NCBI RefSeq assembly: GCF_001677475.2
Contig: NZ_CP015229.1
DNA: 64,000 nt
Source of the DNA: Escherichia coli
GTDB lineage: Bacteria > Pseudomonadota > Gammaproteobacteria > Enterobacterales > Enterobacteriaceae
Reading direction: 5' to 3' (one strand)
Position numbers and translations under genes: made by a program. Positions 47,540 through 58,613 of this stretch are shown piece by piece. Position 1 is the stretch's first letter; the number at the start of each line of letters is the position of its first letter. Under the pieces are notes generated by a model. The model was not told the origin of the DNA. It saw nothing but the letters and a program-made list of their open reading frames with translations, and made no database searches.

Positions 47540-47616
47540 CGGCACGTAGCGCAGCCTGGTAGCGCACCGTCATGGGGTGTCGGGGGTCGGAGGTTCAAAT
47601 CCTCTCGTGCCGACCA
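47540..47616 (+). tRNA. proL: tRNA-Pro (anticodon GGG)
   Basis: CGGCACGTAGCGCAGCCTGGTAGCGCACCGTCATGGGGTGTCGGGGGTCGGAGGTTCAAATCCTCTCGTGCCGACCA; cloverleaf with GGG anticodon; encoded CCA absent. Confidence 0.9.
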
Positions 47617-47618
47617 AA
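47602..47618 (+). repeat. attL core (3' end of tRNA-Pro)
   Basis: CTCTCGTGCCGACCAAA, identical to the copy at 58597-58613. Confidence 0.8.
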
Positions 47619-47652
47619 TCGCCCACCGGAAAGCACCGAATAAGACAGGGAT

Positions 47653-47686
47653 AACCCGCTAATCACTTGATTGGCGGGTTTTTTTA
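47653..47686 (+). terminator. Rho-independent terminator downstream of proL (island-borne)
   Basis: AACCCGCTAATCACTTGATTGGCGGGTTTTTTT: stem-loop plus T7 run. Confidence 0.6.
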
Positions 47687-47740
47687 TGGTTTTTAGTCAC
47701 CGAACATCACCGGATTTATAAGCTATCAGCCGGATTTTTT

Positions 47741-47790
47741 AGTTATACGTTTAGTTATACGGGCTGGCGTATAACTAAAGCCGTATAACT
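47741..47790. repeat. Candidate integrase arm-type sites: 2 x AGTTATACG followed by 2 x CGTATAACT (inverted)
   Basis: TAGTTATACGTTTAGTTATACGGGCTGGCGTATAACTAAAGCCGTATAACT just upstream of int; related GCTA(C/T)ACG pair near attR at 58515-58535. Confidence 0.5.
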
Positions 47791-47824
47791 AAAACCCTGT
47801 TTTTTCGTGTGGAATCATAGACAT

Positions 47825-49066
47825 ATGGCGAGAAAAACACCCCCATTAACCACAGTGCAGATCAAAGCAGCCAGACCAGCGCAAAAGGAGTACACCCTAC
47901 AGGACGGCGGTGGGCTTTTTCTCCTGGTAAAACCGTCCGGATCAAAACTCTGGCGATTTTCCTACTACCGACCATCGGACAAAAAAAGAATATTGCTGAG
48001 TTTTGGATCGCTTGAAGATGTTTCCCTGGCTGATGCCAGAAAACGCCGTAGCGAGTACAGGACGTTAATCAGTGCCGGAACTGACCCGCAGGACCATGAG
48101 AAGAAAAAACGAGAGGCAGAGGCCCGAAGACAAGGGAACACGTTCGAAAATGTGGCGGCGGCATGGTACCAGGTGAAAATCAGCCAGAATCTGGCCCCCA
48201 ACACGATTAAAGACATCTGGCGTTCGCTGGATAAATATGTATTCCCGTTCATCGGCAACACGCCAATAGATACCCTCACCGCTCGCCGCTTTGTTGAGAT
48301 ACTCACACCCATTAAAGCACGCGGCAACCTGGAAACTCTGAAACGCGTTTTACAACGCATCAATGAAGTGATGGATTTTGCTGCCAACAGTGGGCTGATT
48401 GACATCAACACCGCCGCGAACGTCCGCAAGGCATTCCCTTCCCCCACTAAAAAGCATATGCCAACCATCCGACCGGAACAGCTACCGCAGCTAATGCACG
48501 ATTTATCGGTCGCCAGCATAGAACGGCAAACCAGATTGCTAATCGAGTGGCAACTGCTGACCGTAGCACGCCCAGCCGAAGCAGCCGCCGCACGCTGGGA
48601 AGAAATAGATCTCGATGCCGAAACATGGACGATTCCAGCCGGACGCATGAAGATGCGCCGTGACCATGTGATCCCTCTTTGCGGTCAGGCGATAGCTGTA
48701 CTGGAAACAATGAAGCCAATCAGCGCACACAGGGAACATGTTTTTCCCAGCCTTAAAAATCCAATGCTGCCAATGAGCAGCCAGACCGCTAACGCTGCAT
48801 TGCGCCGGATGGGATACGCTGGTGTGCTGGTGTCTCACGGATTACGCGCCATATTCAGTACAGCAGCGAACGAGGAAGGATTCGAGCCGGACGTAATCGA
48901 GGCCGCACTCGCACACGTGGACACGAACGAGGTAAGGCGAGCATATAACCGAAGTAACTACCTGGAAAAGCGCGTGGTGCTTATGCGCTGGTGGGGGGAA
49001 TTTGTAGAGGCCGCAGCTACCGGAGTGACCATAGCCAGTGGTAAAAGGGGTATCCGTGCCGTGTAA
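47825..49066 (+). CDS. int: Tyrosine recombinase / integrase, P4-like (N-terminal DUF4102-type arm-binding domain)
   Basis: MARKTPPLTTVQIKAARPAQKEYTLQDGGGLFLLVKPSGSKLWRFSYY... with C-terminal catalytic region (HGLRA...RAYNRSNY); adjacent to tRNA. The GTG at 47807 is an alternative start. Confidence 0.85.
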   Translation: MARKTPPLTTVQIKAARPAQKEYTLQDGGGLFLLVKPSGSKLWRFSYYRPSDKKRILLSFGSLEDVSLADARKRRSEYRTLISAGTDPQDHEKKKREAEARRQGNTFENVAAAWYQVKISQNLAPNTIKDIWRSLDKYVFPFIGNTPIDTLTARRFVEILTPIKARGNLETLKRVLQRINEVMDFAANSGLIDINTAANVRKAFPSPTKKHMPTIRPEQLPQLMHDLSVASIERQTRLLIEWQLLTVARPAEAAAARWEEIDLDAETWTIPAGRMKMRRDHVIPLCGQAIAVLETMKPISAHREHVFPSLKNPMLPMSSQTANAALRRMGYAGVLVSHGLRAIFSTAANEEGFEPDVIEAALAHVDTNEVRRAYNRSNYLEKRVVLMRWWGEFVEAAATGVTIASGKRGIRAV

Positions 49067-49164
49067 CTGTACAAAAAACCAGTAAAAGCGATGCAAACCA
49101 TGCCAAACCATCGTATAATTGCCACAAATTTAACGACAAGGCCGGAGTATATGAAAATTCTATT

Positions 49165-49395
49165 ATGCAAAATACCACCGCCTACGGCGAAGGGCTGCAA
49201 CTGGCGTTAATGGCAAATCGTGAATTCTGGTCAACATACGATCCGGAAGACAAATCAACAGCCCCCACAAAACACGAGGTAGTCAGTTTTTTGCGCTCGC
49301 GTGGTGCATCGAAAAATCTGGCTGAAAGCATCGACAAGGTGCTGAGGCCCACCAGCCTTAAATGCGGTGGGCGACCTAAGAAGTGGAAACGGTAA
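49165..49395 (+). CDS. Hypothetical small protein (76 aa) followed by a terminator-like hairpin
   Basis: ORF with basic C-terminus (GGRPKKWKR); hairpin ATAGCGGCCCTTTGCGGTCGCTATTTTTTT at 49401-49430. Confidence 0.35.
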   Translation: MQNTTAYGEGLQLALMANREFWSTYDPEDKSTAPTKHEVVSFLRSRGASKNLAESIDKVLRPTSLKCGGRPKKWKR

Positions 49396-49565
49396 TCACA
49401 ATAGCGGCCCTTTGCGGTCGCTATTTTTTTGCAGAAAGAAAAGCGTAATCAATGAGATAAAAAACAGTGGGTACCGTTTTAAAACGGTGGGTACTGTTTT
49501 TCCCGCCCTGCCCTGTTTTACCGTATTTATCACCGGAATACGCCGGATTAACGAGGTAAAACATA

Positions 49566-56932: not shown

Positions 56933-57214
56933 ATGACAGAAGCCGAAATACTGCGATTAATCCGCCGCGTTACCGGAATCAGCCAGCAGGCTGACGAACA
57001 GGCCACGCAGCCGGACAGCGTGACCGCTGAAAATTATGTGCGTGTTGTTGCTGAGGTGATGCGCCGTGATGGTATTGAGCTTAACGGCGTGGATATGCGC
57101 AACATACGAACAAGAGTCCTTGAGTTGCTGGCATACCGTCGCCGGATACAGACGTACAGGGAAAAAGCCAAAATAACGTACCAGTGGAAGAAGCCGGAGC
57201 GGTTACGGCGGTAA
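56933..57214 (+). CDS. Hypothetical protein (93 aa)
   Basis: ATG ORF downstream of terS-like gene; Arg-rich C-terminus; no recognised motif. Confidence 0.4.
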   Translation: MTEAEILRLIRRVTGISQQADEQATQPDSVTAENYVRVVAEVMRRDGIELNGVDMRNIRTRVLELLAYRRRIQTYREKAKITYQWKKPERLRR

Positions 57215-57235
57215 CTTGCTGAACTTAAAGCATAA

Positions 57236-57333
57236 TGGAAATTTGCACTCTGGCCTAACCCGTTAATATTTCAGCAAAGTGCAAATTTGCGTTCTGTAGC
57301 TGGTGGCTGGCAGAATGTAAATTTACATTCTGG
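57236..57333. repeat. Three related palindromic sites sharing an AAATTT core and ending in TTCTG or CTCTG
   Basis: GGAAATTTGCACTCTGG (57236), GTGCAAATTTGCGTTCTG (57279), CAGAATGTAAATTTACATTCTGG (57311; 20-bp perfect palindrome). Confidence 0.6.
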
Positions 57334-57337
57334 TGAT

Positions 57338-57637
57338 TTAATCATCTGATTTACCCAGCCCGTACCGGATTACCGTACAGTGAGCGCCATCGCTACCGAT
57401 ACGCACATCAAAGCGGGGTTCGCGCACTTTCACGCGGTACAGGATCCCATCATTTACCATAGCGTTTAACGTTCGTCGGGTTGCCTCTATGTGGTATCGC
57501 TGATATTCGGAACCATAGAGCAGCAATGTAACACCACGAACATCAAATGGTGGTTCTCCAGCCTCCACCCGCACCCAATCGCGATACTCAGGTTTGTAAA
57601 GTTCAAGAATCTGTTTTTTGTGCCTGGTCATTCTCAT
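57338..57637 (-). CDS. Hypothetical protein (99 aa), reverse-oriented accessory gene
   Basis: ATG preceded by AGGA SD 7 nt upstream; MRMTRHKKQILELYKPEYRDWVRVEAG...; no recognisable family. Confidence 0.5.
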   Translation of the reverse strand: MRMTRHKKQILELYKPEYRDWVRVEAGEPPFDVRGVTLLLYGSEYQRYHIEATRRTLNAMVNDGILYRVKVREPRFDVRIGSDGAHCTVIRYGLGKSDD

Positions 57638-57680
57638 GTGTGATTCCTTATTGTGGGACAGTACTGTCATACAATAAGCT

Positions 57681-58052
57681 ATGAGGGAAATTATCAAAAG
57701 AACGGAAACCAACCATTCAGATTTAACAGGTATCAATGGGATTATGCTTATGGTGCATGATGACAAAGCGGAAGAACTGGAAGCGAAAGGTTTATGGCGA
57801 CGGGCGGCTAATCGCTGGGGTGAGTTACTGAAACAGGCGGCAAGTGATGAAGCGCGTCAGTATGTAACGGAACGACGAACGGCATGCATCCGGAAGGCAA
57901 CCATAACCCGGGAACCGGAAAGAGACCTGATTTGCGCCATAAGAACCGCCGCCACAAAAACACTAACGGATATGGGGATCGACCTGAAAAAAGAAGATCC
58001 ACTGCGGGGCATTCAGCACGGACATACAAAGCAGGATAAACGCAGGAAGTAA
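57681..58052 (+). CDS. PerC-family transcriptional activator-like protein
   Basis: AEELEAKGLWRRAANRWGELL...EARQYVTERRTACI resembles the PerC/Pch motif (KGLxRRAAxRW ... RR..C); the true start may be the internal MLMVHDD. Confidence 0.55.
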   Translation: MREIIKRTETNHSDLTGINGIMLMVHDDKAEELEAKGLWRRAANRWGELLKQAASDEARQYVTERRTACIRKATITREPERDLICAIRTAATKTLTDMGIDLKKEDPLRGIQHGHTKQDKRRK

Positions 58053-58163
58053 ATTTTTCCGTGTAACCAGGCAACCGACTATCTGAAAGATAGTCACCCC
58101 CTACCGGGATCACGCTAGTAACGCACAACAGAGTGACCCATAGCCACCCTGTTCAACCGTTCC

Positions 58164-58210
58164 GGCTGGCTGGCTGGCTGGCTGGCTGGCTGGCTGGCTG
58201 GCTGGCTGGG
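58164..58210. repeat. Tetranucleotide microsatellite (GGCT)11 / (CTGG)11
   Basis: GGCTGGCTGGCTGGCTGGCTGGCTGGCTGGCTGGCTGGCTGGCTGGG in the non-coding right arm of the island. Confidence 0.9.
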
Positions 58211-58596
58211 CAGATTTTGCGCGGGTCTTATAGTCCCTCACAACAGAGTAAATAAAATTGACTTGGTTACAGAGTAACCAAACCGGAGATTTCCGGTTTG
58301 CTCAAAAAATGACAATGAGTTACGCCCCTAACCTAAGTAATCCTTACATTCACTGCATCATCACCATGATGGTGACGCAGCCCACCAACAACCATAACGA
58401 CTTCCGTTACGGTTGATGCTTTTACCCCATTGGGGGGGGACATCCACCAGCTTGATAACGGATAACAGGGAGTCATAACGGTTAAAATTGTATACTTTTG
58501 CAGCAAACATTTTTAGCTACACGTTAAGCTATACGATTATGGATTAAAATTTTTTGACTTCAATTAAATCAAATAGTTACACACACGTTTTGAATA

Positions 58597-58613
58597 CTCT
58601 CGTGCCGACCAAA
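58597..58613 (+). repeat. attR core (duplicated 3' end of tRNA-Pro)
   Basis: CTCTCGTGCCGACCAAA, identical to 47602-47618. Confidence 0.8.

Follow-up and report, generated by a model that had tools for sequence, protein, structure and literature searches.

A Nu1-family small terminase in a probable phage-inducible chromosomal island at the proL tRNA gene of Escherichia coli

A stretch of 64,000 nucleotides from Escherichia coli contig NZ_CP015229.1 (assembly GCF_001677475.2), hereafter the window, carries a 10,995-bp island at the tRNA-Pro gene proL. The best-supported reading, to which we assign a probability of roughly 0.8, is that a P4-type integrase inserted the island at proL, that the island is a classical Gram-negative phage-inducible chromosomal island (PICI) from the EcCICFT073 family, and that it would be packaged with the help of its own small terminase subunit (TerS), predicted to bind the island's cosB and to recruit the large terminase subunit (TerL) of a helper phage. 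The element itself is ordinary: PICIs of such architecture at the same site are already catalogued, and the island is a further mosaic member. An earlier note, made from the nucleotide sequence, had proposed a helper-dependent satellite of a lambdoid phage. That proposal is borne out by empty sites in other genomes, by the island's own integrase, AlpA, primase and origin, by a cos site next to a Nu1-family TerS gene, and by the lack of TerL and portal genes; helper dependence itself would follow from family membership. The satellite architecture was recognised, but the identity of the element as a classical E. coli PICI, already described, was missed.

The boundaries of the island are defined by a direct repeat of the tRNA 3' end. 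ARAGORN finds a single tRNA in the window, tRNA-Pro (GGG) at 47540..47616 on the plus strand (Rfam tRNA, 54.9 bits), and the 3' end of this proL gene is the integration target. The 17-mer CTCTCGTGCCGACCAAA is present exactly twice in the window, with 0 copies expected by chance, forming the attL identity block at the tRNA 3' end (47602..47618, plus strand) and the attR identity block (58597..58613, plus strand). Both copies are perfect, as the earlier note had stated for a block of about 11 kb, and the distance from repeat start to repeat start is 10,995 bp. An artificial empty junction, built from the 600 bp up to the end of the first repeat joined to the 600 bp after the second, was then compared with 5426 complete E. 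coli genomes, the set that also underlies all occupancy and gene counts given below. It matched unbroken over its whole length (100% coverage, 99.3% identity), the annotation beneath it being yejM, tRNA-Pro and yejO, and at least 80% of it is covered in 3783 of the 5426 genomes. Because the empty junction matches as a single piece in other genomes, the block is a real 10,995-bp insertion. The check suggested beforehand, a junction with a single repeat, thus returned such a site, and the 17-bp block is single-copy in the empty-site genomes. yejO starts directly beyond attR, and the yejM-proL and yejO context is otherwise continuous, as had been claimed, and unbroken where the island is absent.

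Further repeats close to the ends suggest how the integrase may engage the site. Four exact TTAGTTATACG repeats, two direct and two inverted, lie at 47739..47792 as candidate integrase arm-type sites, and two degenerate copies occur within attR (58513..58535, plus strand). The 2018 catalogue (Fillol-Salom et al. 2018, Table S1) lists EcCIATCC25922, EcCIED1a.1, EcCI11128, EcCI11368.1, SdCI1012 and SbCISb277 at the 'yejM-luxR' or 'yejM-aidA' sites and prints an 'att core' TTTGTAGTTATACG... for the yejM-site PICIs. This 'att core' corresponds to the four TTAGTTATACG copies inside the island, and these repeats look like arm-type sites; the true identity block, as seen in the empty-site genomes, is the 17-bp tRNA 3' end. 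A terminator-like hairpin supplied by the island lies directly 3' of the tRNA (47653..47680, plus strand), and the native proL terminator hairpin (58621-58651) is now displaced to just past attR.

Gene content and order place the island in the family of the prototype EcCICFT073. Families were assigned with PHROGs, NCBIfam, Pfam and blastp over 18 open reading frames (ORFs), which supported nearly every gene named in the earlier note. Homologues of 14 of the 18 ORFs occur in EcCICFT073 in the same order, namely int, alpA, a divergent YlcI gene, an icd-like gene, small genes, a DUF4222 gene, pri, the origin, h81, ssb, the major capsid protein (MCP) gene, the decoration gene dec, one variable gene, cos, a packaging gene and h93, together with PerC. 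In several genes the longest-ORF start lies too far upstream, and the likely start codons are 47825 for int, 50434 for the Icd-like gene, 54329 for MCP, 56317 for terS and 57750 for perC. SatelliteFinder (Moura de Sousa et al. 2023) recognises PICIs by an integrase, an AlpA-type regulator (a homologue of AlpA, MerR or Stl), a primase-replicase, a capsid gene and a small terminase, and does not allow genes for tail, holin, portal or head-tail connector proteins. All five components are found here and the forbidden genes are absent, which corresponds to the 'Type A' PICIs, 97% of which are in E. coli according to that paper. The island also displays the features used by Fillol-Salom et al. (2018): a PICI-listed site, a rightward unidirectional gene order and an origin just 3' of pri.

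No gene for a large terminase, portal, protease, tail or lysis protein is present in the 64-kb window, as judged from the 18 island ORFs against PHROGs and from tblastn. Searches by tblastn over the 64 kb with lambda Nu1, A, W, B, C, D, E, FI and FII and with the N15 TerL returned homologues of Nu1, D and E alone, and the unassigned stretches of the island are too short for tail, holin, portal or connector genes. The earlier note had reported the same absences, and a continuation into terL, portal and tail genes downstream is ruled out by the tblastn result and by yejO following attR. The E, D and Nu1 homologues and the lambda cos could be taken for what is left of a defective lambdoid prophage, but this origin is very improbable. 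The order is E then D, upstream of cos-Nu1, and differs from that of lambda; identity to lambda is 36-42%, with no phage closer than 48%. Moreover, the P4-type integrase and primase, the iteron origin and the unidirectional AlpA operon are accompanied by no lambdoid immunity, replication or lysis genes, and hundreds of genomes share this compact layout.

Two other satellite classes were considered and rejected. The integrase, primase and Vis/AlpA-like protein are homologous to those of P4, and a capsid gene with terS also occurs in capsid-forming PICIs (cf-PICIs). For a P4-like satellite, however, sid, delta, psu, epsilon and cI are missing, and tblastn with all P4 proteins on the island matched Int, alpha and Vis alone. 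For a cf-PICI, portal, protease, head-tail connectors, HNH and TerL are all absent. Membership in either class is the least probable of the explanations weighed here.

The packaging region combines a lambda-type cos site with a complete small terminase. cosQ, GGGTCCTTTCCGG (56142..56154, plus strand), and the cosN cohesive end, GGGCGGCGACCT (56172..56183, plus strand), are each identical to lambda and unique in the window, and their spacing of 17 nt is the same as in lambda, in agreement with the lambda-type cos announced in the earlier note. Conservation with lambda covers cosQ, cosN and I2, which are also nearly identical in EcCICFT073; divergence begins at about bp 43 of cos. Just beyond, at bp 48-60 of cos, lies GGTGGTGGTGGTT (56219..56231, plus strand), a G/T triplet repeat and a candidate cosB/R3 element for TerS binding. 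The R3 element of phage N15 was mapped by linker scanning to the same bp 48-60 (PMC9026076), where N15 reads GAGGTTGTTGTTT. The motif GGTGGTGGTGGTT also occupies the R3 position in EcCIATCC25922 and in the island of Z1323CEC0018. EcCICFT073 differs here: its cosB reads ACCACCACCAC against GGTGGTGGTGG in the island.

Downstream of cos, a full-length TerS of 180 aa is encoded at 56317..56859 on the plus strand. It belongs to the Nu1 family (Pfam Phage_Nu1, PF07471, 1.9e-22; PHROG 57, 6e-53), as the name Nu1-like small terminase had anticipated; a sequence search against solved structures gave no meaningful match. Identity is 36.5% to lambda Nu1 (residues 3-180), 47.6% to N15 gp1 and 86% to the TerS of EcCIATCC25922. 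The N-terminal winged-helix region is nearest to N15 gp1, with 29 of 52 residues identical and deletions relative to lambda in common in a multiple alignment. The middle region, matching the Nu1 oligomerisation segment, is the part best conserved with lambda (32/71). At the C-terminus, the alignment with the TerL-binding region of Nu1 (residues 141-181) has 17 of 41 positions identical. The protein then ends in a tail of 12-13 residues, GSAPEKLLQNKGE (56820-56859), which is typical of the PICI proteins and was matched by no phage TerS in the phage collection. N15 gp1 is therefore the closest phage TerS, and the two systems resemble each other in the compact DNA-binding domain (DBD) and in the G/T triplet repeat at bp 48-60. 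N15, however, is a complete phage that encodes its own TerL and whose cohesive end differs from that of lambda, whereas the island has the exact lambda cohesive end, no TerL and the extra TerS tail.

The slot occupied by this TerS is the one that holds Rpp in the prototype, and this defines the main rival to the recruitment reading. In EcCICFT073 the helper terS is needed, and Rpp converts the helper TerS to island specificity; with phi80 ΔterS the yield was <1 transductant/ml. The island could belong to the same PICI family with its TerS acting in an Rpp-like manner, forming hetero-oligomers with the helper TerS that block recognition of the phage cos and redirect packaging to the island cos, so that the helper TerS would still be required. 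The gene lies in the exact Rpp slot downstream of cos, the DBD of Rpp likewise has a TerS-like winged-helix fold and pairs with that of TerS, and the good conservation of the TerS oligomerisation region with lambda makes mixed oligomers conceivable. The protein itself does not resemble Rpp. Rpp proteins are ~135-154 aa long, with a winged helix-turn-helix and without a TerL-binding tail (Fillol-Salom et al. 2019), whereas the island has a 180-aa Nu1-family protein, so the island fails the test for an Rpp-type cos PICI. RppA of EcCICFT073 (144 aa) ends before the TerL-binding region that the island TerS retains, and blastp at 1e-3 found no RppA homologue in the island, with 7 of 44 DBD positions identical to RppA. 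Murialdo and Feiss argued that Rpp needs the helper TerS because it is without the TerL-binding domain. An Rpp-like action is thus an unlikely alternative.

An island at the same tRNA-Pro of E. coli A19 supports, as a natural control at the sequence level, a pairing of the TerS DBD with cosB. Its TerS joins a lambda/21-like N-terminus and DBD to a PICI-type C-terminal half, and its cos carries a lambda-like element at the R3 position (AAGCGTGTCGG vs AAGGCGTTTCCG) beside a different, non-lambda cohesive end. In the A19 island, which spans 96-13973 of the extracted A19 locus, a RepA helicase also stands in place of the primase, capsid genes are missing, and one ProQ/FinO gene and two PerC genes are present. 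Such a composition shows modular exchange within the PICI family.

Under the preferred reading, a PICI that recruits TerL through its own TerS, the life cycle up to packaging can be taken from EcCICFT073. There, int and alpA are essential, pri is strongly required and helper phages switch on alpA; the cos site is functional, and the island is mobilised by lambda, phi80 and a resident lambdoid prophage, with phage-length DNA packaged in full-sized heads (PMC6092414). By analogy, a lambdoid helper phage would turn on alpA, and AlpA would activate the rightward operon. Int would excise the 10,995-bp circle, which the primase-helicase would replicate into concatemers, starting at the iteron origin that lies just 3' of pri. 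These would be cut at the island cos and packaged into virions built of helper proteins. Here the proposed route departs from the prototype: the island TerS may bind the single N15-like R3 element GGTGGTGGTGGTT through its N15-like winged-helix domain and recruit the helper TerL directly through its conserved C-terminal region. Since cosN and cosQ are identical to those of lambda, a helper enzyme can nick and terminate at the island site. Four island units add up to 43,980 bp, or 0.91 of the lambda genome, a length that would fill a lambda head of full size.

This mechanism would resemble that of the pac-type Staphylococcus aureus pathogenicity islands (SaPIs), such as SaPIbov1, in which a satellite-encoded TerS homologue directs the helper TerL to satellite DNA. 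The SaPIs differ in being Gram-positive, in using headful (pac) packaging with Ppi and CpmAB, and in having neither cos nor any sequence relationship to the island. In Gram-negative PICIs, terS homologues were already recorded in some members by Fillol-Salom et al. (2018). More generally, the TerS-type E. coli cos PICIs might follow a second packaging strategy, in which a complete TerS with a swappable DBD matched to its own cosB captures the helper TerL through a satellite-specific C-terminus, and the helper terS is not needed. We give this generalisation even odds.

Several points weigh against the recruitment reading. Experiments on this island or on any TerS-type E. coli cos PICI were not found in the searchable literature. 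The R3-like element was assigned by its position and composition, with 8 of 13 bases identical to the N15 R3. Specificity between lambda and phage 21 is determined by the binding of Nu1 to gpA, and no phage TerS is more than 48% identical to the island protein overall or more than 55% over the C-terminal half. For that half, lambda reaches 45% and the best phage match, in the PhiR5_1/PhiR12 group, 55%; therefore no helper is assignable. An identical island occurs in 0 of the 5426 genomes, the best match covering 87% at 95% identity, and recent transfer of this exact mosaic is consequently not documented. The truncated single-stranded DNA-binding protein (SSB), described below, may leave the element partly impaired.

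The primase-helicase (Pri-Rep, 601 aa; 51410..53215, plus strand) matches PHROG 864 at 4e-190 and carries a TIGR01613 domain match. It is 49% identical to P4 alpha over 464 aa, 48% to Pri of EcCICFT073, 49% to the EcCIATCC25922 protein and 99% to that of the Z1323CEC0018 island. Directly downstream, at 53228..53460, 11 copies of ACTGTTCACC in both orientations flank AT-rich stretches and form the replication origin. With no more than one mismatch allowed, the window contains 16 copies of this iteron where 2.9 would be expected, and 11 of the 16 fall in this interval between the primase gene and the next ORF, which substantiates the iteron origin noticed earlier. PICI origins have been described downstream of pri, and the layout here matches (PMC6092414). 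The next ORF is a conserved hypothetical gene of 81 aa (53503..53748, plus strand; PHROG 1231, 1.4e-49) that is 89% identical to its EcCICFT073 copy.

The SSB gene follows at 53745..54044 on the plus strand. Its presence, noted previously, is supported by PHROG 44; its intactness is not, and DNA alignment to the closest relative, in the Z1323CEC0018 island, reveals an out-of-frame deletion of 56 bp at 53998/53999. The reading frame is kept for the first 88 residues alone, which leaves the protein without its acidic C-terminal tail. The tail (...DEPYGDNIPF) is still readable downstream in another frame of the gene region 53745-54110.

This deletion, together with the lack of an identical island among the complete genomes and with capsid and decoration homologues that have no known function in EcCICFT073, could indicate a decaying PICI remnant at proL, inert and no longer mobilisable. 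We regard such decay as improbable. Both 17-bp repeats are perfect, and the iterons of the origin are intact, as is cos. The genes int, alpA, pri, terS, MCP and dec have kept their full length and show 90-100% identity to their homologues from other islands. SSB is also not among the genes shown to be necessary in EcCICFT073 (PMC6092414). The island is probably mobilisable, with SSB as its sole damaged part.

Upstream of cos lie three genes of capsid or regulatory type. The MCP homologue of the lambda E family (346 aa; 54329..55369, plus strand; PHROG 29, 4e-91) is 42% identical to lambda E, its top phage match being 42%, and 54% identical to c1499 of EcCICFT073. The head decoration protein homologue of the lambda D family (55379..55720, plus strand; PHROG 49) is 40% identical to lambda D and 54% to c1500. 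Deletion of c1499 or c1500 had no detected effect in EcCICFT073 (PMC6092414), and according to the HE-PICI paper 21 of 29 reference PICIs have capsid genes, which are nevertheless dispensable for transfer. SaPIbov5 offers a parallel as a cos satellite whose Ccm is a homologue of the helper major capsid protein; Ccm, however, makes small capsids, whereas the EcCICFT073 homologues gave no phenotype and phage-size DNA was packaged (PMC6092414). Why PICIs keep intact lambda E-like and D-like genes without a phenotype was left unexplained in the prototype. Judged from identity to phage proteins (MCP at most 42%, TerS at most 48%), the capsid homologue and TerS are old, satellite-specific lineages.

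The third gene encodes a second AlpA/Vis-like helix-turn-helix protein of 127 aa (55732..56115, plus strand; Pfam Phage_AlpA, PF05930, 2e-08; PHROG 2790, 1.8e-48). It is 37.5% identical to P4 Vis over 72 aa and nearer to Vis than the canonical alpA is. The gene sits just upstream of cos, in the slot of the unrelated 137-aa c1501 of EcCICFT073. The product could be an excisionase or a late regulator.

At the left end, the tyrosine integrase of P4/CP4-57 type (413 aa; 47825..49066, plus strand; PHROG 1) scores 547 bits with NCBIfam NF007246 against a cutoff of 434. It is 34% identical to P4 Int, 90% to the EcCIATCC25922 integrase and 24% to that of EcCICFT073, which targets ycfD-phoQ instead of proL. 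A small conserved hypothetical gene 3' of int (49165..49395, plus strand) has homologues in same-site islands that are 100% and 68% identical, and a terminator-like hairpin follows it at 49400-49425. Next comes alpA (68 aa; 49566..49772, plus strand; PHROG 66/2790), whose product is 100% identical to the homologue in the Z1323CEC0018 island; AlpA is the activator of the PICI cycle in the EcCICFT073 family (PMC6092414). Upstream of it, at 49461..49500, two copies of the partly palindromic 20-bp repeat AAAACAGTGGGTACCGTTTT stand in tandem. They may be a regulatory site of an AlpA-activated promoter, and thus a candidate target of AlpA or of a helper inducer, as suggested by AlpA autoactivation in EcCICFT073 (PMC6092414). 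A scan with the sigma-70 consensus gave 10 promoter-like sites against 15 expected by chance and was not used.

A divergent gene of the YlcI/YnfO family (59 aa; 50055..50231, minus strand; NCBIfam NF041551) is 100% identical to its EcCICFT073 copy. The earlier note had suggested a divergent ribbon-helix-helix (RHH) repressor at this point. The gene is confirmed, and the fold is not established. The protein has no Pfam match and a PDB sequence search came back empty. A single-sequence AlphaFold model shows three helices at a pLDDT of 83, and the top Foldseek folds are RHH proteins (VapB, Arc, CopG), every one at E>3 and hence non-significant; an RHH regulator is possible on the basis of this model.

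Four overlapping small genes follow on the plus strand. The first, an Icd-like gene (50434..50640; NCBIfam NF033153), is 97% identical to its EcCICFT073 copy, and the other three, at 50630..51413, encode proteins of 78 aa, 82 aa and, for the DUF4222 protein, 99 aa. Neighbouring genes are coupled through start and stop codons that overlap or are 6 nt apart. Over the first of these genes, a longest ORF of 287 aa (49777-50640) was rejected as spurious. It runs across the YlcI gene on the minus strand, and the Icd-like gene accounts for no more than its final 68 codons, from 50434 onwards. In relatives, the annotation of the same 49777-50640 interval shows partial Icd-like fragments.

Beyond terS, the accessory genes begin with a conserved PICI hypothetical gene of 93 aa (56933..57214, plus strand; PHROG 1561, 1.3e-55) that is 84% identical to its EcCICFT073 copy. 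A minus-strand hypothetical gene at 57338..57631 has an annotated homologue in strain A19 and could be placed in no family of Pfam, PHROG or NCBIfam; the longest ORF, of 142 aa, probably overstates a gene of about 97 aa. A PerC-family regulator (57750..58052, plus strand; PHROG 994/10396) is 49% identical to the EcCICFT073 PerC and is annotated as PerC in relatives. PADLOC assigned no defence system to the accessory and small genes. Between perC and attR, a perfect (GGCT)11.5 tetranucleotide repeat (58164..58209) is length-polymorphic between strains, with 9 GGCT copies and identical flanks in A19 (12887-12922 of the extracted locus). Changes in tract length could put small ORFs of either strand out of frame. 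Outside the island, an Rfam L25 ribosomal-protein leader (RF03131) at 43799-43824 fits the ordinary rplY-yejK-yejL-yejM context upstream.

The closest catalogued relative is EcCIATCC25922, which lies at the same tRNA-Pro beside yejM and shares the overall gene order and the arm-type repeat motif. Its size is 11.3 kb against 11.0 kb, and its TerS, annotated 'terminase small subunit', occupies the same slot. The interior, in contrast, is mosaic: the primase is less similar than the integrase and TerS, as given above, the MCP and decoration proteins are 54-55% identical, and a 137-aa hypothetical gene stands where the island has the AlpA/Vis-like gene. The 3' PerC module and the truncated SSB belong to the island described here. 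Parts of the island match 2337 of the 5426 complete E. coli genomes. In the phage collection, no close relative of the island as a whole was found, and the sole match was one of 78% to a primase gene.

A TerS-type gene is present in 792 of the 5426 genomes and an rppA/B-like gene in 110 (RppC was left out of the count). By these counts the TerS type is about seven times commoner than rppA/B in complete E. coli genomes.

As an element, the island adds little, since its architecture and site are catalogued and automated tools already detect such PICIs. Its value is that of a clean example of the TerS-bearing PICI subtype, by the counts here the commoner packaging module among E. coli PICIs. The questions that this subtype leaves open are modest but real. 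If the proposed packaging mechanism is true, transfer of TerS-type PICIs would be independent of the helper terS, unlike Rpp conversion. PICIs carry virulence regulators such as PerC, and also defence genes, between strains, and the helpers of a common subtype are therefore of practical relevance.

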